Positions 30,197 to 53,047 of a DNA stretch of 64,000 nt are shown piece by piece. The position numbers and the translations under genes were made by a program. The stretch's first letter is position 1, and every line of letters starts with the position of its first letter. Origin of the DNA: Crassostrea angulata. Lineage: Eukaryota. The DNA is taken from positions 8,295,492 to 8,359,491 of the forward strand of contig NC_069115.1 in assembly GCF_025612915.1 (NCBI RefSeq), given 5' to 3'. The notes below the pieces were generated by a model, which did no database searches, was not told where the DNA came from, and saw only the letters and a list, made by a program, of their open reading frames with translations.

Positions 30197-30198
<2 letters not shown>

Positions 30199-30246: not shown

Positions 30247-30251
<5 letters not shown>

Positions 30252-31387: not shown

Positions 31388-31560
31388 TGTATGTGGCTCA
31401 GTGGTCATACATGTTAATCCAGTAACCTAAAGGTCACTGGTTCAAGCCTGCTTTGGTCACTTGATGTTGTGTGCTGTGTCGTTAGACAAGGCACTTTATC
31501 TGTATTTTTTCGGTCAACCTAGTTTCAATGGGTACTAGCTGGCTTATGCCAGTAGTTAGG
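31388..31560 (+). mobile_element. Candidate tRNA-derived SINE in PARP4 intron 20
   Basis: Pol III box A-like TGGCTCAGTGGTC and box B-like GGTTCAAGCCTGC about 40 bp apart, followed by a non-tRNA body. Confidence 0.35.
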
Positions 31561-31987
31561 GATACCTGTGATGGAATGGCGTCCCATCAAGAAGGAAAAG
31601 AGTAGAGAAAATCTCAGTGTAATGCACAGGGCAATGTCAAATTTGTCTCTGATCCTTTTGCTGTCAGAATTACATGTTTTGATTGTTTGTCAAGTAAAGA
31701 TACTTAGAGTCATGAAATTCTATTGGATTAAAAATCTCCATATTTGCTAGAAATATTTTTACCAATACTTAATGATAAAGTATTGAATTGTTTCATTTCT
31801 TCTATACTACAATATGTGTCATGATTTGGAAGAGCCATAATTGTAAAATAGCAACATAATAACTGCAATATTGGCCTCAAATTGGTGGAACTTTTCTATG
31901 TTTTGATCATATTAATGAAACATAAAACAATCTTAAGTTTGCAAGCATAATGAGAAGTTACAATGTTGTAATTTCTCTCACCAACAG

Positions 31988-32087
31988 CTCTGTAGCAAAT
32001 CGTCATCTCCTGAAAGCAATAGCCAGAGTTGGAGCAGGCTCTTTTGAATTCTATGATTCCAAGTTCAAATCCAAGTGGGAAGATAAG
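31988..32087 (+). CDS. PARP4: PARP4 exon 21 (vWA domain)
   Basis: Encodes (S)SVANRHLLKAIARVGAGSFEFYDSKFKSKWEDK, compared with human GSTANRHVLRILSQCGAGVFEYFNAKSKHSWRKQ; acceptor CCAACAG|C; donor TAAG|GTAAGT. Confidence 0.9.
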
Positions 32088-32331
32088 GTAAGTTCTATGG
32101 TTCTAAGTTCAAATTCAATTGGGAATTCAAAATAAGGTGACAGAATGATATAATTAAGCAGTTATGAATATATTAAAAAGCAATTCTATTGCACTAAAAT
32201 CTACCACCATGTAACGGTATGTATACATTTACAATTCATCCAAATTGTAGAATTTTATAGAATATGCCATTATATTACTAAAAAGTAATGGAGACTTTCA
32301 ATAATTATATGTTTTTTATTTGTCTTGTCAG

Positions 32332-32499
32332 GTCAGATCCCAGTTACAGAAAGCGGCCCAGCCAGTGCTGACCTCGGTGTCCGTTGACTGGCGCCATGAC
32401 GACCAGCACCCTGCACCAATACAAGCTCCACAGCAAATCACCGCTCTGTTCAGCGGCTCACGCCAAGTGGTCTACGGATTCGTGGACAACTGCTACATG
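32332..32499 (+). CDS. PARP4: PARP4 exon 22
   Basis: Encodes VRSQLQKAAQPVLTSVSVDWRHDDQHPAPIQAPQQITALFSGSRQVVYGFVDNCYM, compared with human IEDQMTRLCSPSCHSVSVKWQQLNPDVPEALQAPAQVPSLFLNDRLLVYGFIPHCTQ; acceptor CTTGTCAG|GTC; donor ATG|GTGACT. Confidence 0.9.
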
Positions 32500-32694
32500 G
32501 TGACTGGCTTTATTTTATACTGTAACCAACTTTTTATAGAGGATGCAATTTTATGAGTAAGGGGTATGGAGGAAATCCCCAGAAATTGAGCTAACATGAA
32601 TATAAATGGTGCCACTTTGGCAGTATTTTGTCTCAATTTTTAACAGTTAATCCAATCAGCTGTAAGTTAATTATTGGTATATTACATATATTAG

Positions 32695-32775
32695 GCTACC
32701 CTAAAAGCAAAGATTGGTGTTCAAGAGATATCTACTATTGTCTCGACCTCTGACCTCAGTGTTACAAAGGGCAAG
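32695..32775 (+). CDS. PARP4: PARP4 exon 23
   Basis: Encodes ATLKAKIGVQEISTIVSTSDLSVTKGK, compared with human ATLCALIQEKEFRTMVSTTELQKTTG; acceptor TATATTAG|GCT; donor CAAG|GTAAGA. Confidence 0.8.
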
Positions 32776-33048
32776 GTAAGAGTTCAAACTACTGGTACAT
32801 AAAAGCTAGATTCTTATCTAAAGGATATAATGCTTTTAATTATCATAGTTACATTGTTATAATTCAGAGATTTCAGAAAAATGGTACATGTATAAATTGA
32901 TAACAACTAGTATTTATTCATTTTGATATATAAGCAGATTTTCTTAATAATGTACACTGTGGTTTATCAATAACATACCATCTTGTGAGATGATATACAA
33001 CTGATACCATTTTAACACTGCGTGTCATTGTTGAGATTCTGCTTGTAG

Positions 33049-33129
33049 ATGCTGCACAGATTAACTGCCAAGGGAGTGATCCGAGATTGGGAGGACGGAG
33101 TTCTCTCCCCTGATAGGACCGGCCATGAG
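33049..33129 (+). CDS. PARP4: PARP4 exon 24
   Basis: Encodes MLHRLTAKGVIRDWEDGVLSPDRTGHE, compared with human TMIHKLAARALIRDYEDGILHENETSHE; acceptor GCTTGTAG|ATG; donor GAG|GTAAAC. Confidence 0.9.
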
Positions 33130-33329
33130 GTAAACAATGCAGTACTTACACATAATGTCCATTTTTTTTTTTCCTGTTCCCTTTCTGAGATCTTTGTGTA
33201 AAGTTCACATGGAAAATTCTGTCTTGTGTGCCTACAAAATAACAGAAGAAGGGATTCACTGACAGGAAAGACTAATGAGATTTAGAGTATGATAACTGTA
33301 TACTGGGATTTAAATATTCCTCTTTGTTT

Positions 33330-33500
33330 TATTTTTGCCCCTTTCGCCTTCATGTCTGTGGGCGAATTCAAGACTGGGGATTTCTAATGTGACAGTCTTA
33401 TATTATCTCTTTAAATACAACTGTGTCTGGGCGAATTCAATATGGGGCGAAACTGTTTGCAAGTGTAGAAGGGCGAAAATTACTCGGGGCTAAAATAACC
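33330..33500 (+). repeat. Interspersed repeat with GGGCGAATTCAA / GGGGCGAAA subrepeats; an inverted copy lies at 53760-53960
   Basis: ATTTTTGCCCCTTTCGCC at 33331-33348 vs GGCGAAAGGGGCAAAAAT at 53922-53939, and further matching GGCGAA-type blocks. Confidence 0.45.
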
Positions 33501-33543
33501 CTGTTATACAGTATTTCATTTTTTGCACTTTTTGCACCCACAG

Positions 33544-33645
33544 GTTAAGAAAATGAACCTGAAACAATACGTCATTGAGCTGAGCAAGAGGTACTCCATT
33601 GTGACCTCACTGACCAGCTTTGTAGCCATTGAAAAACGAGAAAAG
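33544..33645 (+). CDS. PARP4: PARP4 exon 25
   Basis: Encodes VKKMNLKQYVIELSKRYSIVTSLTSFVAIEKREK, compared with human MKKQTLKSLIIKLSKENSLITQFTSFVAVEKRDENE; acceptor CACCCACAG|GTT; donor AAG|GTAAAT. Confidence 0.9.
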
Positions 33646-33715
33646 GTAAATGTTGTTTACTTTTATGATTGGGATCCGATAAAATTTGTTTCACTTTGAA
33701 ACTTGAGGTGAAAAG

Positions 33716-34850
33716 TTACCGTAATCCGGTGAATATAATACGCACTTTTTTACCAGCATTTTTTACCGTGAGAAAGGGATGCGTATTATACATCCCTATA
33801 GGATTTGGACATATTTTTTCCTTAGCTGAAGCACAGGGTATCATACTGCCGTATTACCTATGCTGTTCACAGACAGGACCGATACCCCGCTATACATTGT
33901 GACATTCCTTCATTATCACATATATATATTATTATTAACCCTTAGGAAATCATTGTTATAGCATGTAATTAAAGAAAATGTACACTTTAAGTCTGTTAAT
34001 AAATAAACTGTTTCAAAATGGCCTTTAAAAATTAATTTGAACTGCCTATTCTTTATCTCTGTGTACGCCGCCATTACTATAACAGTTGTTATTAATAGAA
34101 TGCGGACTTGGATGGCCACGTGCTATTTGTAACCGATCTTTGAAAACAGCTTACACATCATTTGGCTCATTTTTAACAATTTTCATGTAATGCTAATTAA
34201 TTTATTGCAAATAATTATGAATATAAATAATTCTATAACCTAATCCGTTAATTTGGAAGCCATTGAAACAGTTGTGCTCCCCCACCGCTAACGCTTGACA
34301 CCTTGGGTATCTCAGACACCCCCCTTGGGCTATGTGTACTATACACAACAGAACTATTTGTGCATTTATTTTATTATGTTCCAGGCCTCTAATTGATCAC
34401 TTTGATCGGAGTGAATTAAGAATTTAATAAGGTCCGTTATCTCCATACCTGTACATCGTCCGTTTTTCACTTCACAGGGATTGTAATGACTAAACAATTA
34501 TATAACCTTGTTAAAAGTAGTTGATTTTATTTACGGTAGAATATTTAATACTAGGTCTATTTAAAACATTGATTATGAATTAAAGATATTTCCGCGATGT
34601 ATTAGTTACAATAAATCCGTATCTAAAAAAATATTGCGTTTTTCTTATTTACGGTAGCGTATTCCCGCGATGAAGTTTCAAGCGTGTATACAAAGTATAA
34701 CTGCTTTATTGATACTCAGCATTACCGTTTGGTTAATTTTTTTTTATGCGTATTATACATCCCAACAAGCTTTTTTTCACCATTTTCAGGCCCAAAGTGG
34801 GGGGTGCGTATTGTACACTACTGCGTATTATATTCACCGGATTACGGTAA
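33716..34850. mobile_element. TIR-bounded non-autonomous element (~1.1 kb) in PARP4 intron 25
   Basis: TTACCGTAATCCGGTGAATATAATACGCAC at 33716-33745 vs its reverse complement GTGCGTATTATATTCACCGGATTACGGTAA at 34821-34850; internal TGCGTATTATACATCCC recurs at 33781 and 34741; no clear TSD. Confidence 0.45.
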
Positions 34851-35134
34851 TAATAACTGGGCCCACTTTCTTAATTTGTTCAATAACTAACGGTAAAGTG
34901 ACTCTCTCATGAGATCATTTGAACAGCACTCACTGAAGCAGTTTTTTTTAAATCTGCCATATTAAAAGCTGTATAAAGAAATAATGTATTAGCACACTGT
35001 CAGTAACTAAAATTACGCATCCTGGTAAAATTTTTCTTCAGAAGGTGTTGTAAAATAGTGTGCATTTTATCGCAGTTTCAATTTGGATATAAAAATTATA
35101 AATGGTCCAGAAAATGTTGATCTTCATTAATTAG

Positions 35135-35626
35135 TAGGGCTGGGACGATACTGTACTGAGCCGATTCGGTACATATCACGATACATGAGATGCGATACGA
35201 TACATATCACGATACATTGCAATTAAATGAAAACATGAATAAAAGTTTAAAATTTATTCAACCTGCCGATGTATTACCGCATGTCCAAATTTATTTTGTT
35301 ATATTCATAATGAGCGTTGCACAATTTACAAATTACTTTAGTCTCGTGTACACTAGTTTTTCATAAACAAGTACTCCAAAAGTTTTCCACACTCCATATT
35401 TACCCTCCTAACAGTTTTGACAACTTTACGAGGTTTTCCGCCATCTTTGTACTTTCATATTAGGCGCGCGGACTAAAAATAGCCGATATATGAAGCTCGG
35501 ATATTTTTGAAAAATTAAAAAAAGTTTGGTAAGGTATCGTTGTATTAATGGTAAATGTATCGATCCAAATATCGTCAAAATAAATACCGCGATGCACCGC
35601 TGCATCGGTGGATCGTCCCATCCCTA
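35135..35626. mobile_element. hAT-type MITE (492 bp) in PARP4 intron 25: TIR TAGGG(C/A)TGGGACGAT with an 8-bp TSD TTAATTAG
   Basis: Left TAGGGCTGGGACGAT (35135-35149), right ATCGTCCCATCCCTA (35612-35626); flanking TTAATTAG at 35127-35134 and 35627-35634 fits the hAT TSD pattern nTnnnnAn. Confidence 0.6.
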
Positions 35627-35780
35627 TTAATTAGAGAATATGAAGAAATGTCATTTCTATTAAGTACTTCAGTATTTGAAGATATTCTATTCTTCAAAAT
35701 AGTGTAGATGATTGGTTATAGTTAGACTCCATATGATCAGTAAATCAATTCATTGGTCGATAATTTGTACAATATTTCAG

Positions 35781-35873
35781 GATGAGGTTGTCTCGGACTC
35801 TGCCCCAGTTATAAAGGACTTACTGACCAAGGAGGATGTAGATGTGCTGACTTACCTATCTTGGGACAATGAG
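35781..35873 (+). CDS. PARP4: PARP4 exon 26
   Basis: Encodes DEVVSDSAPVIKDLLTKEDVDVLTYLSWDNE, compared with human SPFPDIPKVSELIAKEDVDFLPYMSWQGE; acceptor ATTTCAG|GAT; donor GAG|GTAACA. Confidence 0.85.
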
Positions 35874-35934
35874 GTAACAATCCAATCAAATCTTTGAAAA
35901 CTTAGAGATTTGAGCCAATGATTTTATTTTTTAG

Positions 35935-36230
35935 CTCACCTAGCTGAGTTAATAAAGGCTCCAGTAAGCTTCCCTGATTAAAATATGTCTATTGCCTTTC
36001 AACGTCAGCGTTTATTTTGTCTTTATTGTAAACTTTTCACATTATCTTTTCTTCAGAAGACTGGGTTAATTTCAACCAAACTATGCGTAAAACATTTTTG
36101 GGGGGAGGGTGTCCTGTTTTGTTCAAATGAAGGGCAAGGTCACCTTTAAAGGGGAGATAATTGAGGAAGAGTGAAAATATGGTGGGGTAAACAAAATTCC
36201 AACAGCTCTGAAGCTTTATCTTTCACCTTT
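35935..36230 (+). repeat. Diverged 5' fragment of the AGCTCACCT..-type (Helentron/pearl-like) element in PARP4 intron 26
   Basis: TTTTAGCTCACCTAGCTGAG...AAACTTTTCACATT...AATTTCAACCAAACT...GGGGAGATAATTG parallels the 5' ~300 bp of copies A and B. Confidence 0.45.
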
Positions 36231-36263
36231 TGATCTAACCAAGATTCTTGTTTTGTATTTCAG

Positions 36264-36347
36264 GATGAGGCAGTCCCAGATTCTTCTCCAGCGATGGGGG
36301 ATGTCGACATGCTGTATAATAATTTTTATGCATCATCGGATAATGAG
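36264..36347 (+). CDS. PARP4: PARP4 exon 27 (a paralogous duplicate of exon 26; possibly an alternative cassette)
   Basis: Encodes DEAVPDSSPAMGDVDMLYNNFYASSDNE; same phase (0/0) and same DE.V.DS.P....D......Y.S.DNE skeleton as exon 26; acceptor GTATTTCAG|GAT; donor GAG|GTTACC. Confidence 0.55.
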
Positions 36348-36714
36348 GTTACCATTTAAATCTGTGCTAACTGTAGTTAATCCATAGGATTTTCAGCATA
36401 TTAATGCTGTTTATTAAACCAATAAAACAGCTCTGAACCAATGAAATTTCACTAGCTATTTAAAATTAGCTCTGTCTTATAGTATATATCTATTATATAT
36501 ACATGTAAAGATTAATCTGAGAAACAATGTTTATACTGTATAGTTATCTGTAATCATCTTAAAACATGTTTGTTACCTAATGGTACCTAATACTATGGTT
36601 TGATATCCCAGAATACATCATTTAGGTTGCTCTGTTTATGTCTTGATGAGAGTCATGGTCTCACTTAGATGCGAATGCCATGGAAACCCCTGCCTGACAC
36701 GCATATTGGCATAG

Positions 36715-36822
36715 CACACATAATGACATAGCACATATAATGACATAGCACATATAATGACATAGCACATATAATGACATAGCACATATAATGACATAGC
36801 ACATATAATGGCATAGCTTTTT
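36715..36822. repeat. 17-bp minisatellite (ACATAGCACATATAATG) x ~6
   Basis: Direct read. Confidence 0.8.
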
Positions 36823-37232
36823 CAGCCTGTCTCTGGCTTGCCACTTGGTTTTTAACTTTCACACCTACATGTACAAGCCTGACAGTGTATCTTCTACTTC
36901 TTAAGATAAGGTAGTGGGGGTCGGAACACTGAGACACTGCAGACCTCAAGTGTTTACCGTTATTCCGTGTCATTTACCATAGGTATTCAAGATTCATAAC
37001 TTGCTCTACTGTTGTCAAACTTGGGTGCTGGGAAGATGCATATAATGGAAAATGAAGTTGCAACGATAGTTATATTCTCTTGATGCAGGGTTGTTAATTA
37101 ACATACTGTACCATTAACTGGTACACAGTATAGTCTGACTGTTTAATGCCATAGGCACTGAATTAAATGTCATTGAGATCGGTTCATTTTCATTTTAGCA
37201 ATCAATTTTACATGAAATTGTTTTCATTAAAG

Positions 37233-37409
37233 GAATTGGAAGAGCTGAAATCAACAAACAGTGAAGAGAAGTTCTTGAGAGAGGAAAGGGGGACATCATC
37301 AAGTGAAGAAGAAGAAGAAGAAGAGGAGGAGGAGATTTTAGAAGAAAATGGGAAAAAGGGAAAGTCAAGGAAATTTCTTTCAAGAATGCGATCATGCAGA
37401 ATACCAGTG
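37233..37409 (+). CDS. PARP4: PARP4 exon 28 (acidic/basic linker)
   Basis: Encodes ELEELKSTNSEEKFLREERGTSSSEEEEEEEEEEILEENGKKGKSRKFLSRMRSCRIPV, loosely compared with human ..LSKRKHRKIPFSKRKMELSQPEVSEDFEEDG; acceptor CATTAAAG|GAA; donor GTG|GTATGA; phase 0/0. Confidence 0.6.
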
Positions 37410-38489
37410 GTATGAATTTAATTAAATCTATTTTTAATCATATGTTTGTTTTGAAAAAAATTTTAGGTACTGGAACATGCTTACTGAAAAGTTGGGGTTT
37501 TTTTGGCAGTCGTATTAAGGCAAGAAGTCCAAATCTCACCAAGAATCATTTAAAAGTACAATTTTAGTACCCATTGTTGTATTTAATTGTTTTATTCAAT
37601 GAAATACTGTAAACGTATTATATTTGGCATGTACGATATTTGGTGGAAATTTAATTTGTATTTGAACAAGTTGGTGTGGATTTGAATTAGCGTATTCCTG
37701 AATGTGACTATTCTAATACATATATGCATGGCATTTATGGATGTACTTGATTTAGCGGACGCCGCATTCCGCCAAAAGTTCTAAATAGAATACACAGCCA
37801 AATGTAATACATATACAGTAGAACATGTAAATAAAAATAAATTCTAAGTAGTTATTCAATGAATTTGGTTTAAATATTGCAGCAGCTTTATTGAAGTACA
37901 TAACTGTCATGTACTTTGTTAAGTTTTCAAAATTCTATGGAATTGAATTGAATTTTCAAAAATCTCCAAATCTAGTTATTTTAATATTCATAATCAGCTG
38001 GCTTCAAATAATATACCTGTATTACTCACTTCATAAAGACTTTTACCTTTACCTTTATAAGAATTAAGGCGGACATACTTTGTATGATAAGACTTCTTAA
38101 TAAGCTTTTAATTTTATGCTGTTTATGTACCACCGAATTTGCTTGTTATATTTCACAAATACTCTCCACTACTATAGAGAATCAATCACTTAGACAGAGA
38201 ATATGATTATCTGACCTTGACCCTTCATGACACAAGGACCTCCATTGTTGCTGAGTTTTCATCATGTTCATTTTGATCAGTTTTTCAGACTGACCTTCCC
38301 TATGACTTTGACTGCATTATTTCTTATATTGACCCTATATATCCCAGCTTCAAAGACAGACAAAAGTTTATACAGTTTTAATCCAACTATTTTATCAATT
38401 TGTAATCAAAATTGTGCATAAAAACCAAAATTCAGTTATCATATTGTAAGTATCAAAACTATAAGTCTGAGTAAAAAATTTGATTGCAG

Positions 38490-38724
38490 CAGGCTACAGT
38501 CCCAATGGCCATGATGGCATCAGAAGTTTCCTTTCAAGCTTCACCAGATAAGATAACTGCTGATTTTAATGTGTATGAGGATTTAGATAAGCAAGATGTG
38601 ATGCATGAAGAACAAGACCCCTCTGCTCAGGCCAAGTATAGGATCAAGATGGGGGGACTTGGCTACAAGGGGGACATAGTGAGCAGGGGACTGAAGGACA
38701 CCTGTGTTGAGAGTGAGGTTACAG
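38490..38724 (+). CDS. PARP4: PARP4 exon 29 (divergent C-terminal region)
   Basis: Acceptor GATTGCAG|CAG; ORF QATVPMAMMASEVSFQASPDKITADFNVYEDLDKQDVMHEEQDPSAQAKYRIKMGGLGYKGDIVSRGLKDTCVESEVT; donor ACAG|GTAAGA; phase joins exons 28 and 30; no clear human match. Confidence 0.5.
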
Positions 38725-39188
38725 GTAAGAAATAGGAAACTGAATTAGTTACTGGTAATACTGTACTAAAGCAATGTAATATGAGGTCACAAGTAAGACA
38801 AAGTCTCAAACAGGTTAGAATACAAGTAGAGCAATGTAATGACATATATAATATCTAATAATGTCTTAAGACAGGGCTCCATCAAACCTTGTAGCTTTAA
38901 AGTTTTCTGAAGAACATGATTATTTGTTTATTTCACTTAGTTTGAGCCAATAAATCTAAGACTGACACTTTCACTGTAAAGTAACTGTTTATGTGCTTTA
39001 AAACATTGCTTTTTCTGCATTATGATGAAATTGCAACTTGTAAAATAAATGAAAAATATCATAAGCTTTCTTTTTTTATAAAATAAAAAGCCTTAGGGAA
39101 ATTAAACACCACCCTGTCACATCTGTTTTTGTAAATATTGGCCTGATAAACAAGTAATTAATTTTTATGGCCTTACTCTCTTTGCCAG

Positions 39189-39775
39189 GTTCCAAACCAA
39201 GAGTTGAGAAAGTTATAGATGAATCTACAGGTAGCCCCACATTTTATGGGTCTGCTAAAGGTTTCAAAGAATCAACTTTAAAAATAATGAGAAAAAGGGG
39301 GTTTTTTTGCAGGAGGTCGACAGGTGTAATATCTGTAAATATAGATCAAACATGTTCACTACCTCCTACACTAGATCCTAAACCACTTCCTACACTAGAT
39401 CCTACACCAACTCCTACACTAGATTCTATGCCACAGCCTCCTGTATTAGCTCCTAAACCTATACCACCAGCACTCGAAGTGGAGCCTAATTTTTACAATT
39501 CACTATCAAATCGATCCCAAACAGTTTTAAGTAAACAGGCACGTATACCAGCTTTACCAAGCATGGAAGCTTCTAGGTCTTCTGATGAACTGCAGCCCCG
39601 GTTAAAATCTACACAGCCTGTTTCGTGGAGATCATGTCCATTACCCCTTCACAGGCCCTCAAAGAAGAGAGTACTTTCTCCACCTTCAGATCCCTTTGTG
39701 TCAATTTATGATGAATCTGAACCACTGTTGGGAGAGGAGAATGTCCCCCTCATCCAAGCATTCCCCCGGATGTGA
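39189..39775 (+). CDS. PARP4: PARP4 terminal exon (proline-rich C-terminus, stop TGA at 39773-39775)
   Basis: Acceptor CTTTGCCAG|GT; a 195-codon ORF rich in P/S/T (..TLDPKPLPTLDPTPTPTLDSMPQPPVLAPKPIPP..), like the proline-rich tail of vertebrate PARP4; the last ~10 codons and the stop lie inside a repeat copy; internal introns cannot be excluded. Confidence 0.5.
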
Positions 39776-39813
39776 TGGATGAGGGGCATTCTTGGAAGAC
39801 AGCCTGAGGCTGA

Positions 39814-39950
39814 GGAGTATCAAGTAGCATTATTTCCTGGCTATTATGCTCGGGATCGCCCTTCAAAAAAAGCTAAAAACCTACCTGGAAGTGACGTCAC
39901 ATACCGTATAAATAGTGCTTCCATTGTGATAAACACTCATAATTTTAAAG
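39814..39950. repeat. Left copy of a ~135-bp inverted repeat pair bracketing a 4.7-kb AT-rich segment; it begins inside the PARP4 3' end
   Basis: GGAGTATCAAGTAGCATTATTTCCTGGCTATTATGCTCGGGATCGCCC...AAACACTCAT is the reverse complement of 44700-44836; in addition 39745-39830 is the reverse complement of 40020-40095, forming a local hairpin that includes the PARP4 stop codon. Confidence 0.7.
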
Positions 39951-42900
39951 CAGATTTATTGTCAAATATGTATTTTTATTTGAGGTGGGATAAACAATTC
40001 TCAAAACCCATACAGGGAGGGAACCTTGATACTCCTCAGCCTCAGGCTGTCTTCCAAGAATGCCCCTCATCCATCACATCCGGGGGAATGCTTGGATGAG
40101 GGGGACATTCTTTTCATCCAGCCTTCGGCATATCGGAGTATCAAGTAGCATCTTCAAAGTATTTGACAATAAATAAAAATCCTTCCAAGTAGAGAAGATT
40201 CTCAATCAATGATTTAAATAAACATATACCATTTTAATAAATCAACTTTGGTTTCATCATGTGGAAACACAAAATTGCTTTATCATCTTAGCCACAAAAC
40301 ACATCAAATGTACCCATTATTTTCCTCACCAATTTCTATAATAATTGTCCATATTGTGGCTGCATGATTAATGTTTTCTCAGAAAATAATGTTTTAAAAC
40401 CATTTTGCCTCATTTCTCTGCGATATACCGTAATAAAATACATTGTTTGTAAAATTCAAACTATCTAATTTTCTGTCTGTAAGATGTTAATAGAAAGAAG
40501 AATGAATTGCATTCATTGAAATGTCAGATTTCACTGTCTGATATATAGGGTACATTATAATACACATATAATACAGCTATAATGTAATTAAATGTATGAT
40601 CTTCTAGCTTCCAATGTAATGTAGAAAACAAATGTTTTCTTCCTTGAATATAAAGTACCACCGGTATTATATTCATGCATGATTAAGTTTTGCAACATAA
40701 CTAAGGTACAATGACCCTCTGATCAGAAAAATATTTACTCTTCATTAATTACTTATATGTCAATCATTCTTTTATAAACTAAAATCATATTTATATATAC
40801 ATGTATATCCTATTTTGTCTAGCTTGTATAGCTATATATTAGGATCAGTTAAGTTTTCTTTGAAACTTAGATATTATCAGTAAAAGCAATAGTATTCACT
40901 TGTGTACAGAAGGCTGTCAGGTATAATCTTGTCTGATGTCTTTGAACATCAACGTTCCTTTCTTAATTGAAAATTCTTAAATCAATATCTATGACTTTCC
41001 TGGTATGTGGTATTTATTCAAAAATCAAAATGCTAATCTTTCATAACACATCCATTTTGATATATTAATACACTGTACAACCAAACTCTGCATGAATTAA
41101 TTAGTTTTAAGAAAACTAATTTCAAAACTTGCTATCTTTTCTAAATTTGATAATTATATCTTCAATTTGAAATAGGTTAATATAAATGACCTATGTTAAG
41201 ATTTTAACCTCTAGCTAGGTACTGTTTTCTCTTAAAGAATATGGAATTCATATTTCATTTTCCATAAATCTAATATATGTATCATTATAAACAATCTATT
41301 ATTTACATATACATGTATATTCATGGAGTATATATAACTTTTCCCTATAAAGTGGGAACATTGTATGACATTAATTTTTTGTGTATTAACAATTTATGAC
41401 AAGATATGAAATCTAATATCAAGTTCTTTGTAATGTCATTTTTTGGTCGTCAATATATCTATATTCATGTAATCACAATGAGACCAACAATTGAGAACTG
41501 TAAACAGGACTATTTTTGCCCCATGTTATTTTCTTAGATTGTAAACATTTTTGTCCCAATTAAAACTTGCCCAGACAAAGCTTTGTTTATAGAGAGACAA
41601 GGTAGGGGATTGTAATTCGCCTAGTCTTCATCAATACACCCACTGGCAAAGAGACAAAAAATAAAACAGGAACAAATGTGTTCCCTGTAATCGTTCTTGG
41701 AATTTATGAATGATCAGATATGTTATATTTATGGTAACATTATTTACATATATGCCAGCAGCTAAATATGAGTAAACATTTCTTCAATATTAAATATTGT
41801 ACTATAATATCTTTGTCCATATGATCGAGTGATATGATTAAACACAATCACTATCTTGAAATAACTTATTATAATCAAATTTCATATTAAATGAAATAAG
41901 CGAAAGTATAAATCCTGTTAATTCATATATTCAATCAATATGACACAATTAGAAAATACAGAAAAAGAACTTTCTCAATCTTTTGCAAAAGAAATTCAAT
42001 CATCTTTAATATTAAAAAGTTTTTCCCATCATTTTAATTTTCTGTTGCAGCTACTACATAGCCTTGTGTTTACACAATGTCTTAACACATATATCTGTAA
42101 AGTTAATATTTTCTAATCTATTCTGATTCAAATTCTGAATAATATGTACCAGAAACGTTCTAAAATCTGTTTTAAATTTGTAGTATCATATATACTAAAC
42201 ACCATTAGCAAGTAAATACATGCAACATTTGTCTTTTCATGAAGACTTCAGTTCTGATGATAAGTTCTGAAGAGATAATCAATAATTATTCACATATACT
42301 GGAAACCATTCCAATGCATCAACTAATACATATATGGTAAGTATATAATAAATGTATGAAAATCAGTTTGTTCTTTGCTTTTTCTCAATATGAACATTGT
42401 AAACATGGTGCTAGCTAGTGTATCGTAATTCCATATTAGAGTTACTCATGTAACCCATCTTTTATAAAGAGAATCTCAAAAAATAAAATTTCAGTGTCTC
42501 TAAATATATAATCAAACATAATCTCATGTTTCATATCGTATATTCAATACTCTATTCAATAACTTATAACTGTATATTGCCAATTTACCATTCAATTATA
42601 TCTCTTCCATTGCAATATTCTATTACAAATGTACGTATTTTTACATTTAAAATCCTTATCACTGGATTTTTCCTTAAAGAGGAAGGTTGTAAAACAACTG
42701 ATCTCCATTGACAATTTGTCTTGGTATAAAATTGCTTGACATATGGTAAAAGTTTAATTCACCAAATTCTTAAGATAGAAATAAAAGATGGTCACATATA
42801 GTCTCTTTCTTTAATATATACTGTATTCTTTCATTTCAATCTAATTGAGCATGTACCATACTTTGGTAATAAGTTTTGATGTTTCTTTTTATAACAACTA

Positions 42901-44279
42901 GGGTTATAGTGAACATTGTATTATTTCTGGATTTTCATTCTGACCACATTGATCCTCTTTCACTCTGAACCTTTTCTTTTGGTATTATATCTCAGGATTT
43001 CAGCAATGTATCAAACAACTTCATTTCTTTATATCATACAGTGTCATAACAATACTTATCAAGCCTTAGTTTCCATGAAGTCTTCATTTAAATTAGCTTA
43101 AAATAAATTCATGTATGGTGTCTGAAATCAAATCATCTAAGTCAATAAATGTTTGGTTCTTTGTTCCTCATATCATCCTCATTAATCATATAATGATGTG
43201 CAGGTTTATGACTTTTGTAATAATTATGGATGCAAAAAACAATTAAATAGTAAAACCATATTAATTATTTGACTGAATACATGTACATTAATTACCGGTA
43301 CATGTACTTATTTTAAAAGTACTTTTCAAGTCAAGTATCCTGATGTTTGTTTGATTTCTCTCTATTACTAACTTAGACATATATATGGCTTTCATTCAAA
43401 TTTTTAAATCAATACTGGTACTCATGTTTTCAACATTCACTGTCACTTCAAGTCAAACTTTATACCTCTTAACTCAAATTTTATATCTGAATAAAACTGC
43501 ACAAACAATTGATACAATTCAAAACACTGCATGGATTGTCTTTTGCACCCATTACAAACAGTTATCAATTTAATTCTCTAATATTTTATGAATCAGTTCG
43601 TCTTTCAAAAAATTCATGATTCTCCAAGATTTTAAGCTTCTTTCTTCCAAACTTCACAACATGCACAACTTCGACTGTACAATGTAATATAAATAAATGT
43701 AATGTAGACAATCATCTTTTCTGTGACAATAACTTGAAAACACCATATATTATGTGTTATAGAAAACATACGTATACGTAAGCTTCTCATCCCAGAATTA
43801 AAACATTTCACAGCCAATGTATTGCTCTGAGAAGCAAAATAAATTCCTGTTCATTAGTGAAATTTCTTGTTTGGTCTTCTATGACACCAAATAATATTAC
43901 TGATATCATCATCTGTACTTATTTCAACCATGTGCAAACTGATGCCTTAAATACTTCTTTTTTATCATGATCAATAAACCAACATTAATTTCATGTAATG
44001 TATTGCATCAGCCTGTTCTGATGTTCTAAATTGACATCTTCTTTCACCTACATGATTTAGTACAGTTGTATTATTAACCTGACTGTTATTTTGTTCAAAC
44101 TTCAGACCTTTGGTCATTTTACTATGAGCATTACATTTTGTAAAATGTGGGTCGTAAACCAATTATCTCCAGTATCAGTCAGCAGTTAAGAGAAATTTCA
44201 TCTCTTGTCTCATTTATATCCCTGATATTGAGATCAATAAAACCATAAGAAAAATCTGAACACAGCGTGTTCTAATTGT

Positions 44280-44525
44280 ACTGTACTATTTAATATATAC
44301 ACAGCGTGTATATTATTCAACTTGCGGTGTAAAATCTTCTATATAGTCCAAGTTCTGAACACAACGTGTTTTATAAACTTACTATCAACCAATACACAAC
44401 GTGTACTGTAAAACTTGCGGTAAAATATATTCACGACAAAATTCTGAACACAGCGTGTTCTTATCGTGCATTCAACAAATACACAACGTGTATTGTACAA
44501 CTTGAGTTGTAAAACCACATGAACC
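44280..44525. repeat. Tandem repeat (~60/120-bp units) built on ACACAGCGTGT / ACACAACGTGT motifs
   Basis: CTGAACACAGCGTGTTCT...ATACACAACGTGTACTGTAAAACTTGCGGT recurs ~3 times. Confidence 0.6.
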
Positions 44526-44699
44526 ATGTGTAAAACGAAAAGCACGGATTATCAATCCTTTCAAACCAAGACTTCGTCATTGGTAGATTTAATTCGTTTT
44601 CAAAGGCTTTACAAACCTTGCAACTAAGACCACGTCTTAGAAAATTTATTAACACCGCAATAACCATATAACCGACAAGGGCTCATGTCCCGATGTCGC

Positions 44700-44836
44700 C
44701 AGAAAAAATATGAGTGTTTATCACAATGGAAGCACTATTTATACGGTATGTGACGTCACTTCCAGGTAGGTTTTTAGCTTTTTTTGAAGGGCGATCCCGA
44801 GCATAATAGCCAGGAAATAATGCTACTTGATACTCC
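44700..44836. repeat. Right (inverted) copy of the ~135-bp repeat; partner of 39814-39950
   Basis: ATGAGTGTTTATCACAATGGAAGCACTATTTATACGGTATGTGACGTCACTTCCAGGTAGG...GCTACTTGATACTCC. Confidence 0.7.
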
Positions 44837-44962
44837 GATATGCCGAAGGCTGGATGAAAAGAATGATATGAATGTTGATATCACGTTACAAGGGAAGTTG
44901 CTGCCTTCAGAAGAAGGTGAAAAATCAACAAGAGGTTAGTATAGAGAAATATCTGAGTAACA

Positions 44963-44965
<3 letters not shown>

Positions 44966-44998
<33 letters not shown>

Positions 44999-45082
44999 AT
45001 TCTGATCACATTTTGTCTGTCGTCCGTCTGTCCGTCCGTCTGTCCGTAAACTTTTCACATTTTCAACATCTTCTCAAGAACT

Positions 45083-45114
<32 letters not shown>

Positions 45115-47098
45115 TCATCCTTAGGCAAAGGGGATTCAAAGTTGTGAAAATTAAGGGTCACACCCGTTTTCAAGGGGAGATAATTAGAAATTAATGAAAA
45201 ATTTCGAGAAATCTTTAAAAATCTTCTTCTCAGAAACTAAACAGCCAGGAAATCTGAAACTTGTGTGGAAGCATCCTCAGGTAGTGTAGATTCAAAGTTG
45301 TGAAAATCATGACCCCCAGGGGTAGGGTGGGGCCACAATGGGGGGTCGAAATTTTACATAGGAATATATAGAGTAAATCTTTAAAAATCTTCTTCTCAGA
45401 AACTAAACAGCCAGGAAATCTGAAACTTGTGTGGAAGCATCCTCAGGTAGTGTAGATTCAAAGTTGTGAAAATCATGACCCCCCAGGGGTAGGGTGGGGC
45501 CACAATGGGGGGTCGAAGTTTTACATAGGAATATATAGAGTAAATCTTTAAAAATCTTCTTCTCAGAAACTAATCAGCCAGGAAAGCTGAAACTTGTGTG
45601 GAAGCATCCTCAGGTAGTGTAGATTCAAAGTTGTGAAAATCATAACCCCTGGGGTTAGGTTGGGGCCACAATGGGGGGTCGAAGTTTTACATAGGAATAT
45701 ATAGAGTAAATCTTTAAAAACCTTCTTCTCAAAAAATAATCAGCCAGGAAAGCTGAAACTTGTGTGGAAGCATCCTCAGGTAGTGTAGATTCAAAGTTGT
45801 GAAAATCATGATCCCTGGGGGTAGGGTGAGGCCACATTGGGGGGGGGGGGGGTGTTAAAATTTTACATAGGAATATATAGAGTAAATCTTTAAAAATCTT
45901 CTTCTCAGAAACTAATCAGCCAGGAAAGCTGAAACTTGTGGGAAGTATCCTCAGGTAGTGTAGATTCAAAGTTGTGAAAATCATGATCCCTGGGGGTAGG
46001 GTGAGGCCACATTGGGGGGGGGGGTGTTAAAGTTTTACATAGGAATAAAGAGTAAATCTTTAAAAATCTTCTTCTCAGAAACTAATCAGCAAGATGATTC
46101 TTTTTAATTGTTAAGACTTTGGCTCCTGGACAATCCTTCGGCCTCACAAGAAGGTTCAGAGTTTGATGTAGCTAAATATCCCATATATAAACAATTGTAA
46201 AGGATCTTTTTGAGAACTGCAATACTCAACATGTGATATGACTATAAAATTGAAGCAGGCAGCTATTTTTTCATTAGAATCTTTTTGTATTACTGTTTTG
46301 GGTTAATTATTGCCTTTGATTTATTGATTCTTGAATATTTTAATTAATGCATCCGCTGTTAACCAATTAATGTGATGATTATTTTTATACAATAATAAAT
46401 ATTCAATGTATATAAGTTGTTCTGCATAAGTAGTTTTGGGTTAGGCTGGATTAGTTTGTTTATTTTTGATTTCCAATTTTTAGATACTATGAATTATTTT
46501 AGGCTGGCACATATATAGGGACAGTGTCTATTGCATTGCAACGAGTGACTGTTTGGGGTTAAACTTGAACAGGTACGGAGAGATTGAGGGTGTTGACATC
46601 CCTGCTCTTTCTAGTCTTCGTGTTTTTCTAACCAACGATACAGAATGTGCGGTCATTTCTGCCCTGTATCGCATTGATACAAGTGTGCGGTCATACCTGC
46701 TTGTATTGGTGGTGGTTGCGGCGGAGCACTAGTGTATGGTCATCCCTGCTGGTGTTCTGGCCTTTCTAGTGCAAGTGTGCGGCACTCCCTGCGTTAGGTT
46801 GAGCTGTTGGCGCAAGTGTGAGGTCATCCCTGCTTGCGTTATCTCTGCTTGCATTAACGTTGGTACCTGTTGAGTTGCGTAGGTGTGCGGTCATCCCTGC
46901 CTGCATAACGTCGAGTCCCTATATATGTGCAGGAGCGGTGATTAAAGTCTGCTCTTGTAAATATTTTCAGCAATCAGGGCTATCCGAGTTCCAAGGGGGA
47001 AAAATGGATTTTATTTATACAGGATCTACATGTATTAATGTACATTGTCCAGATTGTATTATGACTCCATTAAGCTGACTTTATCATACCTATTGTTC

Positions 47099-47135
<37 letters not shown>
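44966..47135 (+). mobile_element. Helentron/pearl-like non-autonomous element, copy A: 5' hairpin AGCTCACCTGAGCT, (CCGT/CTGT)n microsatellite, ~160-175-bp internal tandem array (~5 units), 3' hairpin GGCCCATGGGCC; with an extra ~0.7-kb internal insertion
   Basis: Shares ends and internal array with copies at 58444-60848 and 55283-55724; tandem units at 45211-46085; an additional block at 46250-46960 carries a ~60-bp repeat (GTGTGCGGTCATCCCTGC, about 6 copies). Confidence 0.6.
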
Positions 47136-47136
<1 letters not shown>

Positions 47137-47529
47137 CTTAATATTCAATCAAATTAGATTACAATAAAAAAAACTATTAATAAATATAGGTAAGATAGAG
47201 AAACCTCCGAGTAATTTAATTTCTGTCTGATTTAAACAACTTAATTTAAGGTACTACATGTCAATCATGAACTTTATAAGATTTATAACTCATTTAAATA
47301 CACTACGGCTAATGCGGATTGCGTATTAAAGCAAGTCCTCGTGGTGTGAAATTGATCGCGGTTTAGCATAGGTAACTCAGGTAAAACCGCGCATCCTCGC
47401 GGTACAGCTTCTCACCTTGTCCACAACGTTGCGGCACTGTGAAACCAATCTCAGGTGAAAACTTTCTTGTTTTGAATGCGAGTTACCTCCCCCAATTTCT
47501 TCTCGTATGAGAAATATGATTGAGGGAAT

Positions 47530-47910
47530 TAATGAATATTAATTCATATTCCTTTATTTTATAAATGGAGTTGACTGTTACAATAATTATTTATTATTAT
47601 TAATTAAAAAAAAAAAGTTGGGGATACAAAAGGAACGTGTAATTATGCTAACACAGAACTTTGTATACTATTTTGTATACTAGCTGGTAAGCGTTACAAA
47701 TTAAATCTTGGCACATTCATCGCTGATATTTATTGATTCATATTTCTTTATTTTATAAACGGATTTGATTGTTACAATTTATTATTATTATTATTCAAAA
47801 AAATTGAGGGAAATAAAAAAAACTTGCAATTATGCTAAATAAATTCAGAATTTTGTATACTATTTTGTATACTTCTTAGATTTACATATTAAATCTTGGC
47901 ACATTCCTTG
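47530..47910. repeat. Tandem duplication of a ~190-bp AT-rich unit
   Basis: TTCATATTCCTTTATTTTATAAATGGAGTTGACTGTTACAAT... repeated with ~85% identity. Confidence 0.6.
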
Positions 47911-50475
47911 CAGGCAATTATCGGTTCTCAATTAATTAGATTAATTAACAAACATTTCATCAAAATATCTTATTTAACCTCGGGACTTCAGATCCTAATT
48001 GGCATTTCATTTACAGTCTTTCATAATTAATTCATAGTTTACCTTCAAAACATACCTTACACTTGGTAATTTCACTTAAATACCTTTAAAGAATTTGTTT
48101 AATGAAAAACAAAGTACATTGTAGATATAAAATGTTTTAAATTGCACTCGCTTAATACCGATGGACCCGATTCGATCCCGTGATCGACAGTGGTTGTGTG
48201 TGATAGGGAATGGTGGTGGCCCGCTTGGACACGTGGGTATTTTCGGCCAACGAAAGATATTAATATAATTTGTAGAACTTGTTTATCAATCATTGTAAAT
48301 AAAAAAGGTTCAGTCAGTTTAAGAAAATGCTAATGTTAAAATCGTGTGTATTTAAAAACTGACTTTCCTATCCGATTTGGCAAAAGTATGATGTTCAATG
48401 GATCGCCCAATATTTTAGTTGGTCGTTCAACCAATCGGGATTTGAAAATATGAATGATCCTTTATTCTGGAAAATCCATCACATGTTAAAATTTCGCAGT
48501 GTCAGTTGACCAACAGAAGAAAGGGAATTGCGTAACATTACATATACAGTATGTGTATACAGAATTTGAGTGGTTGCCGTTAGGGTGGGTGACCTGCAGC
48601 AATAAGTGTGACTTTGGTGTCAGCTAAATAGAAATATATAGTCTGTTCTTACAAACAGCGAAATTTTCTTGATAGAATTATTTAATTTGAAATATGTGTA
48701 ATATTTGTTTACAAAATACATCTATGAAATTACCTCATAATGATATACTTTACACTCGATTAAAATACATTTAACAAACAGACTATAACCAGGGTTAATA
48801 AGAAATGGAGATTGGAATTGAGAACACAGCTACAGTAAATTTTATATATACATCTAGTATTTGTTCTTTTAAAATGGGAAAAATGTGATTGTTCGAAGGA
48901 ATGTAAACTTTAAATCATTATTGGAATCATATGAACATACGACTTGTGTTTGTGTGCAAAAGTAAAAAAAAAACTTCCTTACACGATGTGTGATACTGAT
49001 ACATTATTTATTCCTCGAGCCATGTTAAAATTAAGAAAGTTTTAATTTTCAAGTTTCTTAGAATTTTATATATATTGATCTTTGAGAGAACGAGAGAGAG
49101 AGAGAGAAGGTTTCTCAACATTCGATAAGATTTCTCAAGGCACGTGAACAGAGCACGGGTGCTAGCTGTCACAGACGGGAAGTGCTATGTAATAGTAATA
49201 CACACCTGTAAACACTGTACTTGTCAGTGTATGAATTATGCATTATTTTGTGTTCGAATATAGACGGTCTACCTAAAGGGCTTGCGTTATTTATTGTCCC
49301 CTTCATGATTATAATAATGCATTATTGCATGCCATTCATCAAACTCCCTTTAAAATTTTACTTTTTTCTGAAAACGGCTACATGTATGAATACTTTACAG
49401 CTGCTTTACAGGTAACTCTTTTGGCTCGAACTATGATCGCGCGAAGTGAGTCTCCGGTCCAGTTTTTTCCCCCAATATAACTAAGCAAATTTACTCTCTT
49501 GATCTATCGAAACCCTTGATCCCTCGAAATTAAACTCCAGTCCCATTATTCATAATCTATTGTTTCTACTCTCGATACCTTGAAAAGGCTGTGTATATGC
49601 AAGCGTTACCTAATCTTAACACCTACTTGCAATGGTCATTTAATTGGATCAAGGGGTTAGATGCGGGACCCATAAAACACACTAGAGTAGAAATAATACA
49701 CACTCTCAAAATCAATCACATGTGAAATCAAAACAAGCATAATTGATTGGATTTAATGGTGTAATAATTGTTTTAAGATCATGCTTTGATCATTGATAAG
49801 ATGAATTTTTCTATGTTAAAAAATTGATTGATCCGCCTATCTCGACACAAAATATGCGTCAAAATTTACAGTATGATGTCACAGCGATCAGTCAGTTTAT
49901 ATTTATCGTTGTTGGACTTATTTGACTACAAAGTTGCACACATAGGTAATTTTTAATGTAGCTGAATGTTTTAGTTCCCATAACAATCGGAAATTATTTT
50001 ATCTATTATTTAGCATTTTTGACGACTTGTTGTTTTGTATGATGTCATAGTTAAAATTTCCCATACTTTCTGGTCGGCGCAACCACAAATTAAAGTAAAC
50101 CTTAACAGTGCTGCGTAATGGGAAAAACGTGCAAGTTGAGGCCTACGGTAGCGCCCTCATAATAGTACATCGCGTAATATTTGCCTTCTTAAAATTTGTG
50201 GCACTTTATTAACTCATCATATGCAAAAACAAACTTTAAAATATTACTAATTTTCAAGTACACGTATATATGCATGATTTGCGTAATACACTGCTATGTT
50301 TGGGACTCTTGTACGTTATTAACAAAATACATGTAGCAGTAGTTTCCTAGAAGTTTTTGTTGAAAACAATTCAAAAGAAAATAATGAATTTCTCTTCCAA
50401 TAATGTCTAAATTCTAACAATAATTTAAGAACACAGCTTTTTTTTTCTTCTCGATTTAATCCCTGATACAGAACA

Positions 50476-51971
50476 TACGAGGGTTGTCCAAAAAGTTCGT
50501 GGACACATGTAATTTCATTCTAAATAACGACGCTATATTTAGAAAAGTATTAAAATATTTTAATATAGACTATAATAATGCATGTGTATAAAAATCAGAA
50601 CAATGTTCATTCTCATAATGTAGTTATCACTACAAAAACATTGCCTGTACAGGCCGCACGGCCCAGTCTGACGGTTACACGACGTTTTTATAACGTCGTA
50701 CGTAGCGCGTTGGTTTCTGTCACTTTTCAACGTAGTCACCTTTGCACTGCAAACACTTCTCACACCTTCTTAGCCATGAATCGAACACATCCGAATACCA
50801 TTTACTGTCGATTTTAGATACAATGGTTCGAGTAGCATATTTAAGTCCATCAGAATCCTCAAATCTTACTGACCTCTTAGCTGTGATTTGATGAAAGGAA
50901 AAATTGCAAAATCCATCGGAGCAAGATCCGGACTGTATGGCGGGTGTTAAAGAAGATCGAATCCTAGGAGTTCGATTTCCAGACACGTGGAAGCTGCCGT
51001 ATGTGCAGGTGCATTATCTTGGTGTAGGATGATATTTCAAAGGTCTACAGCCATGGCAGGGCGTTTTTTCTTAATTGCCTTAACTAAGTCGCGGCGTAAC
51101 ACCTGTAATAAATAAAACCAATGTTTCGTTTGGTACACTGTATGTGGCTTTAGAATATGTGAATTTATTCATATATATAGTAATTAAATAAATCAAAATT
51201 AAGATTAGAATGTCCGGGTATTAAATTTATGAATTACGATATGCTAAATGTAGCGAAATGGAGGTTTGCTAACATCACTTATTGACGCGACTTCTCTTAA
51301 CGTCAGACGTCTGTCCTTCATGACAATGTCATGAATGCGGGATTTCGTTATATATCGTCACAAAGCAAAGGCCTTCCACTTCTTTCAGCGTCTTTTAAAT
51401 CGCAAACTCCATCCGAAAATCGTTTGTGCCACTTGTAGACTAGTGATCTTGATATGTGTCGATGCCTTTTTGTGTTCTCCATCATTTGTTTCGTTTGGAT
51501 AGGTGTTTTCCCCGAGTCTACGCAGAATTTAATGATGGCGCGCTGTTCCATGCGATCCGCCGACGTCGCTTTTTCTGGCGTTTTCAAAGACATGTTCTTG
51601 CCATAAACTCCTTGAAATATCCTCTGCTCAATTAAAAACAGCTTTAAATGACGTATGAAAATGACGTTCACAATTCCGACTACGTCACAGTTGAATATTT
51701 TGACGTTTTTACCTGTATTAAAAATACTGTTAATATTCATATCTTAAAACTCAATCTCGAAGTTTGGACAATTTTGACAATGGGCCGTTCGTGCTTTTCG
51801 CGACACTTTAATACAGTAAAATTTAAGTTTAATTTTAATGAAAACATTCAAAACCACTTTAATCTGATTTGGAATTTTATGACAAATATTTTGGTATACA
51901 ATATGCATATATAAACCCGTTTAAAATGACAAAAACGCGATTGTCCACGAACTTTTTGGACAGCCCTCGTA
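50476..51971 (-). mobile_element. Degenerate mariner-like element (~1.5 kb) with 30-bp TIRs; the transposase is fragmented
   Basis: TIR TACGAGGGTTGTCCAAAAAGTTCGTGGACA at 50476-50505 and its reverse complement at 51942-51971; TA dinucleotides at both ends; minus-strand ORFs encode a mariner HTH (MEQRAIIKFCVDSGKTPIQTKQMMENTK..DAERSGRP, 51348-51740) and a catalytic/C-terminal region (..PHPPYSPDLAPSDF.., WLRRCEKCLQCKGDYVEK, 50720-51060), out of frame with each other. Confidence 0.8.
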
Positions 51972-52095
51972 CACCTGTTACGGTGTCTTACACCATCGCG
52001 GTATAATCATGGCCCCGCTATCACCGCAATGACAATACCGCGAAGGTGTATCAATAAAAGGATTAAAACACCATCACAGTGTCGCAGGAAAATAC

Positions 52096-52440
52096 GGGAT
52101 CCGTGTTGGCCGTAGTGTAGCTATAGGCTGGAGCAAGTAGCCTTATTGATCTGCGTTGGCTGTAGTGTAGCTATAGGCTGGAGCAAGTAGCCTTATTGAT
52201 AGAAAAACAACACATTTTACAATTCCCTGCTTGTAAAATAAAATGTCAATACAATAACTTTACACTCGTAAATGTAAAGTTTCTATGAAGTGTTGATTCA
52301 AGATCCTATACATGTATCTGTTTCACCATGTAGGACCGGTGGTACAGGAAGGAGATATAGGAACAGATTCAGATTTGCCTCCACCACCACCACCACCACC
52401 ACCACGACCAGATATTGATTATATGGGTGCACTTGCCAAA
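52096..52440 (+). repeat. Segmental duplicate I: 55-bp tandem doublet plus a splice-acceptor-preceded exon-like block encoding (V)QEGDIGTDSDLPPPPPPPPPRPDIDYMGALAKKLAMRKRG
   Basis: 52125-52400 aligns with 52868-53110; GCCGTAGTGTAGCTATAGGCTGGAGCAAGTAGCCTTATTGATCTGCGTTG occurs twice in tandem (52096-52200). Confidence 0.6.
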
Positions 52441-53047
52441 AAACTAGCCATGAGAAAACGGGGCAGTCAGTTTCACTTACATATACATTTACATCTTATG
52501 TACATATACTTTATATCAAAATATTGGATGTATCTATCAGACAAATACTATAAAATAATGTGTATGTATACATTGCAAAATGTATCTATGTTTATCCGCA
52601 ATACTTATACTCTGGTATATGAATATGTGAAAGTTAAAAAAAAAAAGAACTTCAAAGTGAAAAATCAACAAGAGGTTAGTATAGAGAAATATCTGTATAA
52701 CATTTTTTCTGACTCAATCAATTTAGATTACAATAAAAAACTATTAACATAAGTACGGTATGTAATTTAGAGAAACCTCTGAGTAATTTAGCTTAATTGT
52801 CTGATTTAAACAACTATAGGTACATGTCAATCATGAATTTTGATAAGATTTATTATTCATTTCAAAAGCTATAGGCTGGAGCAAGTAGCTTTATTGATTA
52901 TAGCAAAACAACACATTTTGCAATGCCCTGCTTCTAAAATAAAATGTCAATACAATAACTTTACACTAAGTCTGGTAAATGTAAAGTATATACCTATGAA
53001 GTGTTGATTCAAGATCCTATACATGTGTCCTATACCATGTAGCATCT

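Follow-up and report, generated by a model that had tools for sequence, protein, structure and literature searches.

The stretch of DNA analysed here, 64,000 nucleotides (nt) of Crassostrea angulata (contig NC_069115.1, positions 8,295,492 to 8,359,491 of the forward strand; hereafter the window), raises the question of where the oyster vault PARP gene, PARP4, ends. An open reading frame (ORF) of this gene stops at 39775, inside one arm of a repeat-derived hairpin, and an earlier note on this DNA had taken that stop for the extreme C-terminus of the protein and the sequence after it for the start of the 3' untranslated region (3'UTR). Our analysis points to a different answer. It is very probable that a young, multi-copy, non-coding element of about 5.12 kb with inverted-repeat ends (39744-44865) is inserted into an internal exon of PARP4 in this Crassostrea/Magallana oyster. 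It would be a non-autonomous cut-and-paste transposon (class II, with terminal inverted repeats, TIRs), mobilised in trans, that landed recently and cleanly in the exon and is carried by the assembled individual or haplotype. The PARP4 frame would then run nine codons into the element and stop.

PARP4 continues downstream of the apparent stop

The C. gigas PARP4 protein XP_034334283.1 (isoform X1, 2148 aa), which sits together with C. gigas PARP4 isoforms in the cluster of protein P0007, was used as the reference. With tblastn it gave 40 collinear matches on the + strand of the window, covering aa 1-2148 in order, with an identity of about 86% at the level of the individual matches. The gene is a PARP4 orthologue, being collinear with a named PARP4 and carrying BRCT, PARP catalytic, VIT and VWA domains (Pfam). 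These four lie 5' of the break; an HSP70-like stretch (Pfam, aa 1810-1946) lies 3' of it, and the last 290 residues carry the UniRef name 'PARP4 MVP-ID C-terminal domain-containing protein'. The parts of the gene that matter here are:

18031..62554, + strand: coding exons of the PARP4 orthologue, first to last match (tblastn, C. gigas PARP4 isoform X1, aa 1-2148)
39189..39743, + strand: interrupted internal exon, 5' part, about aa 1379-1564; acceptor CAG/GT at 39188/39189
39743..39775, + strand: nine codons supplied by the element (VPLIQAFPRM) and premature TGA at 39773-39775; an ending found in none of 11 related ORFs
44866..44934, + strand: interrupted internal exon, 3' part, encoding DMNVDITLQGKLLPSEEGEKSTRG; followed by the donor GAG/GTTAGT
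52334..52465, + strand: next PARP4 coding exon, the first of at least ten after the insertion (tblastn match and splice-site analysis)

The interrupted exon corresponds to residues 1379-1588 of the 2148 of C. gigas PARP4 and is matched in two pieces, 39182-39742 and 44850-44936 (tblastn). It is not the last exon of the gene: residues 1560-2148 were placed at 44850-62554, in order and on the same strand, with at least ten exons 3' of the insertion (52333, 53048, 53678, 56375 and so on to 62240-62554). At the corresponding point XP_034334283.1 reads ...EGEKSTRG and then PVIQEGDLG..., with about 560 further residues. Since at least ten coding exons follow, the TGA at 39773-39775 is to be regarded as a premature stop coming from the element, which would remove about 585 residues, with the MVP-ID C-terminal region among them.

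The alternative, that PARP4 naturally ends here, its last codons, stop and 3'UTR start being overlaid or donated by a repeat or its 3'UTR rearranged by a repeat-mediated inversion, has next to no probability. The open frame of the window does end at 39775 within the left repeat arm, but in uninterrupted alleles and in the C. gigas protein a further 25 codons follow, encoded at 44866-44934, and after them at least ten exons up to about 62554. Compared with the empty allele, the flanks of the insertion run collinear, and there is no inversion. From the earlier note it thus stands that VPLIQAFPRM and the TGA lie in the left arm of the hairpin, and its suggestion that the repeat may have donated these codons is upheld by a comparison of C-termini, in which repeat-free orthologues and alleles do not end in LIQAFPRM and a stop. 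The stop itself is not PARP4's own, and neither the proposed C-terminus and 3'UTR start nor the proposed inversion survives.

Alleles without the insertion

The 202-aa ORF ending at 39775 was searched against the protein collection, and 11 related ORFs of 61-98% identity, all from Logan read-set assemblies, were found. All 11 match it up to ...DESEPLLGEEN and then go on with DMNVDITLQGKLLPSEEGEKSTRG in place of VPLIQAFPRM and a stop. The exon continuation ...EENDMNVDITLQGKLLPSEEGEKSTRG, present in all of them and in XP_034334283.1, is encoded in the window at 44866-44934.

At the DNA level two contigs show the uninterrupted site. The first (L001, from SRR6063306) is 99.3% identical to the window over 902 nt (38842-39743), intron included, and resumes at 44860-44946; the second (L002), which encodes P0007, is 94% identical. 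Both run from 39743 straight into 44860, the overlap being the 6 nt AGAATG and their sequence at the empty site being ...GGAGAGGAGAATGATATGAATG..., and 39744-44865 is therefore an insertion without counterpart in other individuals and related taxa. The empty state would be the ancestral one, because the exon is unbroken in every other sequence, a relative of only 61% identity included.

Architecture of the element

The element spans 39744-44865, which is 5,122 bp counting one AGAATG (5,116-5,122 bp overall). Its modules follow each other in the order X, T(a), B, U, inverted T(a) and X, T(b), interior, inverted B' and T(b). With the preceding motif of the exon they are located as follows:

39738..39743, + strand: left AGAATG, single in the empty site
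39744..39786, + strand: module X, 43-nt near-palindrome at the left tip (TCCCCCTCATCC, 21-nt loop, GGATGAGGGG); identical in copies L003 and L043
39787..39830, + strand: module T, variant a, CATTCTT...GGAGTATCAAGTAGCAT
39831..39946, + strand: module B, left copy of the long inverted repeat (116 nt), containing TGACGTCA and TATAAATA
39947..40024, + strand: module U, 78 nt of unique sequence; B and U together form the loop of a 374-nt fold-back; also in L003, L041 and L042
40025..40111, - strand: inverted T(a), X and AGAATG, second arm of an 87-nt perfect hairpin (repeat search and BLAST)
40106..40151, + strand: module T, variant b, 46 nt; internal perfect inverted copy of the right terminus
40152..44703, no strand: AT-rich interior, GC 26-31%, no ORF above 68 aa; 42975-44299 missing from L004
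44236..44520, + strand: subterminal array of units of about 90 nt, at the right end only, with ACACARCGTGT six times; also in L004 and L043
44704..44865, - strand: right terminal inverted repeat, B' and T(b); the right AGAATG forms its final 6 nt (44860-44865), and homology with L004, L041 and L043 stops here

The three repeat relationships listed in the earlier note are real and well past what chance would give, with coordinates off by 5-16 nt. Repeat search and BLAST place the pair given as 39745-39830 and 40020-40095 at 39738-39824 and 40025-40111 (reverse complements, 87 nt, 100%), and the pair given as 39814-39950 and 44700-44836 at 39814-39946 and 44704-44836 (133 nt, 99.2%). The third fragment, put at 40095-40145, lies at 40106-40151; it is a perfect inverted copy of 44820-44865 (46 nt, 100%) and a diverged direct copy of 39787-39830. 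When gaps are allowed, 39787-39946 pairs with 44704-44865 over 162 nt at 92.6%. These are the TIRs of the element, and the outermost 43 nt on the left, module X, lack a counterpart at the right end. Both the hairpin and the 133-nt pair belong to the modular ends (X, T and B) of the element. As DNA, X with its flanks (39738-39792) folds into a hairpin of -16.6 kcal/mol (z = -5.4), and the whole left end (39730-40120) has a fold energy of -243 kcal/mol (z = -24).

The bracketed block had been described as AT-rich and without an ORF above 68 aa, and both points were confirmed. Since in each of its six frames a stop also falls about every 15 codons, the window copy is non-coding. Exact look-up of nine interior ORFs in the protein collection gave no match, and a protein search with the 68-aa ORF beside the right end gave no candidates. 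The ORF at 39779-40099, without a Pfam match, is the repeat read through, as had been supposed. The tandem array, earlier placed at 44280-44525, is likewise real: ACACARCGTGT occurs six times on one strand between 44260 and 44491, against 1.8 occurrences expected in the whole window.

A ribozyme or structured RNA in the repeat, such as a hammerhead retrozyme, was considered and ruled out, Rfam giving no hit with E <= 1 within 38500-46500, nor any that reached gathering score in the whole window. Both copies of module B (39886-39912 and 44738-44764) carry the palindromic TGACGTCA followed 9 nt later by TATAAATA, a pair that looks like a promoter pointing inward from each end of the element.

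Copies at unrelated loci

Further copies were taken from independent assemblies. The end modules were found at four unrelated loci (L003, L041/L042, L004 and L043), 93-99% identical to the window copy, and homology ends at the same nucleotides in every copy. L003, an ENA metagenome scaffold, has, in a different flank, a left end that over 1.5 kb is 98.1% identical to that of the window copy and has the order X-T(a)-B-U-T'(a)-X'-T(b)-interior. In L041 and L042 the left end opens directly with T(b)-B-U..., without X. The right end in L004 is 93-95% identical to that of the window copy, with 1.3 kb (42975-44299) deleted, and the left copy of module B is 97.7% identical to the B of L004. L043 has X-T(b)-B joined to interior sequence that lies on the right in the window copy. 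X is thus present or absent at either end, varying among copies.

The fold-back is a part of the element that moves with it, because its modules border unrelated DNA elsewhere. The family is young and multi-copy, has a deletion derivative and would be non-autonomous; its youth is read from the identity of the arms (99-100%) and of the copies (93-99%). The suggestion, made from the letters, of a large non-autonomous TIR element is borne out by the empty-site alleles, the copies at unrelated loci and the deletion derivative.

Extra copies appeared to be signalled by the 17-mer GGAGTATCAAGTAGCAT, which occurs in 30 metagenome and 6 viral contigs; these show no likeness to the element past the 17-mer and were set aside as chance matches. 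The tail of L041 (737-1072) resembles neither the element nor the window and carries a separate ORF, and this low-coverage metagenome contig is probably chimeric. P0013 and P0016, the ORFs of the collection that cover the right end in L004 and L043, read TGA as a sense codon, a gene-caller artefact on eukaryotic contigs.

Consequences for the PARP4 transcript

The insertion allele would give a truncated or non-functional PARP4 transcript, barring exon skipping or weak cryptic splicing. Without the insert the exon is 624 nt long, and skipping it keeps the frame. AATAAA motifs lie inside the element at 40168, 40217 and 40236 and could terminate the truncated message.

A different outcome would follow if the element were a new intron of the introner-like kind and were spliced out, with GT at 39743, AG at 44861 and one extra Asn codon in frame; we consider this quite unlikely. 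If AAT is taken as a 3-nt duplication, the element does begin with GT and end with AG, such a splice keeps the frame, and 58 in-frame, stop-free pairs of donor and acceptor exist. Inverted-repeat ends in a coding exon are also a feature shared with introner-like elements. The edges were scored with splice weight matrices derived from 27 introns of this PARP4 gene. The boundary donor, AAT/GTCCCC, scores -0.4 bits compared with 3.5-12.0 in the real donors, and the boundary acceptor, which has no pyrimidine tract, scores -2.7 bits compared with -0.9-15.1 (median 7.9) in the real acceptors, so that, unlike in introner-like elements, the edges lie below every real site of the gene. The best donor 5' of the stop reaches only 6.1 bits, and no ORF with ...EENNDMN... 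was found among the related ORFs. Since its edge splice signals are very poor, the element is probably not built to act as an intron.

Insertion site

The filled site has two copies of the motif AGAATG, the empty site one. Six junctions are available in all, and the window copy is the only one that shows both ends. AATG lies directly outside the element at four of the six independent junctions:

Window, left: GGAGAATG/TCCCCC
L003: AAAAATG/TCCCCC
L043: CGAAATG/TCCCCC
L041: ATAATG/CATTCT

Module T always opens with CATTCT, the reverse complement of AGAATG, and does so in its two internal copies as well, so that the right AGAATG looks like element sequence. The junctions fit equally well a 6-bp duplication with strong target preference, a duplication-free insertion at AATG, or a join through 4-6 nt of microhomology. 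A model of the piggyBac kind, with a 4-bp AATG duplication and T starting from CTTTTC, was rejected: the facing copies T2 and T3 both have CATT on their outer side, and CATT is therefore part of the inverted repeat and not a direct duplication.

We also considered a non-classical transposon that integrates beside a fixed AATG without a true duplication, the second AGAATG being the element's own end. Hairpin-guided single-strand integration of the IS200/IS605 kind, or a short-core crossover as in tyrosine-recombinase elements, would be possible routes. AATG outside four of six junctions (chance about 0.006 per site at the given base composition), the CATTCT start of module T even in internal copies and a stable tip hairpin that is present or absent at either end all speak for it. 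On the other side, the case has six junctions and one copy with both ends visible, the element has no linked HUH or tyrosine-recombinase gene, inverted repeats of about 160 nt together with a deletion derivative are typical of cut-and-paste elements, and strong target preference explains AATG equally well. We regard such integration as unlikely.

The bolder form of this idea is an undescribed kind of metazoan DNA transposon with a removable 43-nt end hairpin, which would integrate immediately 3' of AATG by a hairpin-guided or core-crossover reaction instead of a staggered DDE cut. In that case the T'-X'-T junction at 40025-40151 would be a relic of ends that had been joined. We put this forward as a speculation of low probability, and keep to a TIR-type transposon in what follows.

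Weighing of the insertion

Several points weigh against the insertion of such a transposon into PARP4. The window copy has no transposase, its longest ORF being 68 aa, and no autonomous partner was met among the copies; for this reason no superfamily is assigned. Its tips are poorly inverted (TCCCCCTCATCCAAGC on the left against the reverse complement CATTCTTTTCATCCAGCC on the right). The 6-nt 'duplication' need not be a target-site duplication in the strict sense, as CATTCT is constant in module T and AATG recurs beside other copies, and the effect on the PARP4 transcript is read from the sequence. Finally, the PARP4 junctions were found only in the window, exact look-up of three junction ORFs in the protein collection giving no match.

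The last of these points would also agree with an assembly artefact, either a repeat-induced misjoin or a false insertion, and perfect inverted repeats of 46-87 nt are hard to assemble. Such an error is nevertheless very unlikely. Both junctions are base-exact and share AGAATG, and the exon stays collinear, unlike at a misjoin; independent assemblies of other samples contain the left-end fold-back as well, at 98-99% identity.

Comparison with known elements

The insertion of a transposon into an exon is an ordinary kind of event; it is the element that is oddly built. Non-autonomous class II (TIR) transposons with long inverted ends include fold-back-like forms, for example Galileo and Tetris. 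The window element resembles TIR transposons in its inverted ends of about 160 nt, its non-coding interior and the short direct repeat seen against the empty site, and at the level of the family in copies of 93-99% identity at unrelated loci, a deletion derivative and subterminal repeats near one end. It differs from them in its poorly matching tips and the lack, so far, of a transposase or autonomous partner, in the extra 374-nt fold-back of duplicated end modules at one end, and in that the subterminal array is one-sided and the 6-nt repeat overlaps sequence constant in the element.

At 5,116-5,122 bp the element is too big for a miniature inverted-repeat transposable element (MITE), these being a few hundred bp long; the left-end unit 39787-40062 alone is MITE-sized (276 bp, with 38-nt inverted ends). 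It is not a classical fold-back element either: the inverted ends make up about 160 nt of 5.1 kb and have no tandem structure, and only the left end folds back (374 nt).

Helitrons insert at AT, without duplicating the target. Helentrons insert at TT (PMC7492417), and the Cg_HINE elements, which are non-autonomous Helentrons of C. gigas, likewise leave their target unduplicated and favour TT within T-rich stretches (PMC7492417). The window element shares with Cg_HINE the host group, a short terminal sequence that at one end forms a hairpin with a complementary repeat close by, a short tandem array within the element and a palindromic sequence near the other end. It differs from Cg_HINE in its site, GAGAATG/ATATG with AGAATG on both sides, in its inverted repeats of 133-160 nt and in having no microsatellite module. 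A Helitron or Helentron was rejected, as the empty site GGAGAATGATATG has no TT, the junction repeat is 6 nt long and no placement of the boundary inside this repeat yields TC...CTRR ends. The KolobokP composite elements of bivalves, which have long terminal direct repeats (PMC9587614), were also rejected, the terminal repeats of the window element being inverted.

Among exonic insertion alleles the case is a familiar one, in that the element lies in a coding exon, to which it adds a stop after a few codons, and other individuals and sister taxa lack it. Its only distinctive points are that the gene hit is a vault PARP, broken upstream of the MVP-ID C-terminal region, and that a perfect hairpin of 87 bp lies directly at the new stop.

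If the insertion is accepted, what looks in this assembly like the C-terminus and 3'UTR of PARP4 is an artefact caused by the transposon, and a gene model taken at face value loses about 585 residues, the HSP70-like stretch and the MVP-ID C-terminal region among them. Oyster genomes carry a heavy load of recent transposon insertions, of which PARP4 would be a further example. The insertion allele may be a naturally occurring truncation of the vault PARP, and oysters homozygous for it, if they exist, would test the role of the C-terminal part of PARP4. The modular hairpin ends and the recurrent AATG should be of interest to transposon specialists.

Other observations on PARP4 and the window

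The HSP70-like stretch of oyster PARP4 (P0033) is a Pfam match to HSP70, PF00012 (77 bits, profile positions 381-515), over aa 1810-1946, at about 56375-58162 of the window. It lies between a proline-rich region and the C-terminal MVP-ID part. Human PARP4 is not known to have such a stretch; in the oyster it could be a domain specific to the lineage, or else the gene model could be a fusion.

A 37-nt stretch at 44914-44950, made up of the end of the interrupted exon and its splice donor, recurs with 97% identity at 52654-52690, just past the next exon, and the protein module PVIQEGDLG.DSD..PPPPPP is present twice in PARP4. The two repetitions suggest an old exon duplication.

The intron between these exons (44935-52333) holds an ORF of 130 aa on the - strand at 51348-51740 (..RAIIKFCV..SRSLVYKWHKRF..RSGRP). 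We take it to resemble the N-terminal helix-turn-helix of mariner-type transposases; Pfam gave a weak match to HTH_23 (18 bits, below the cut-off). Right after the interrupted exon the same intron contains a 167-nt tandem repeat, in 2.4 copies of 98% identity, at 45209-45600.

Upstream of PARP4 exon 1 there are two very large minisatellite arrays with a 21-nt unit, at 4480-8635 (about 198 copies) and 8896-14361 (about 260 copies), with a 315-nt higher-order unit and a GC content of about 52%. They are oppositely oriented, meet near 8.7 kb and give rise to spurious long ORFs in all frames.

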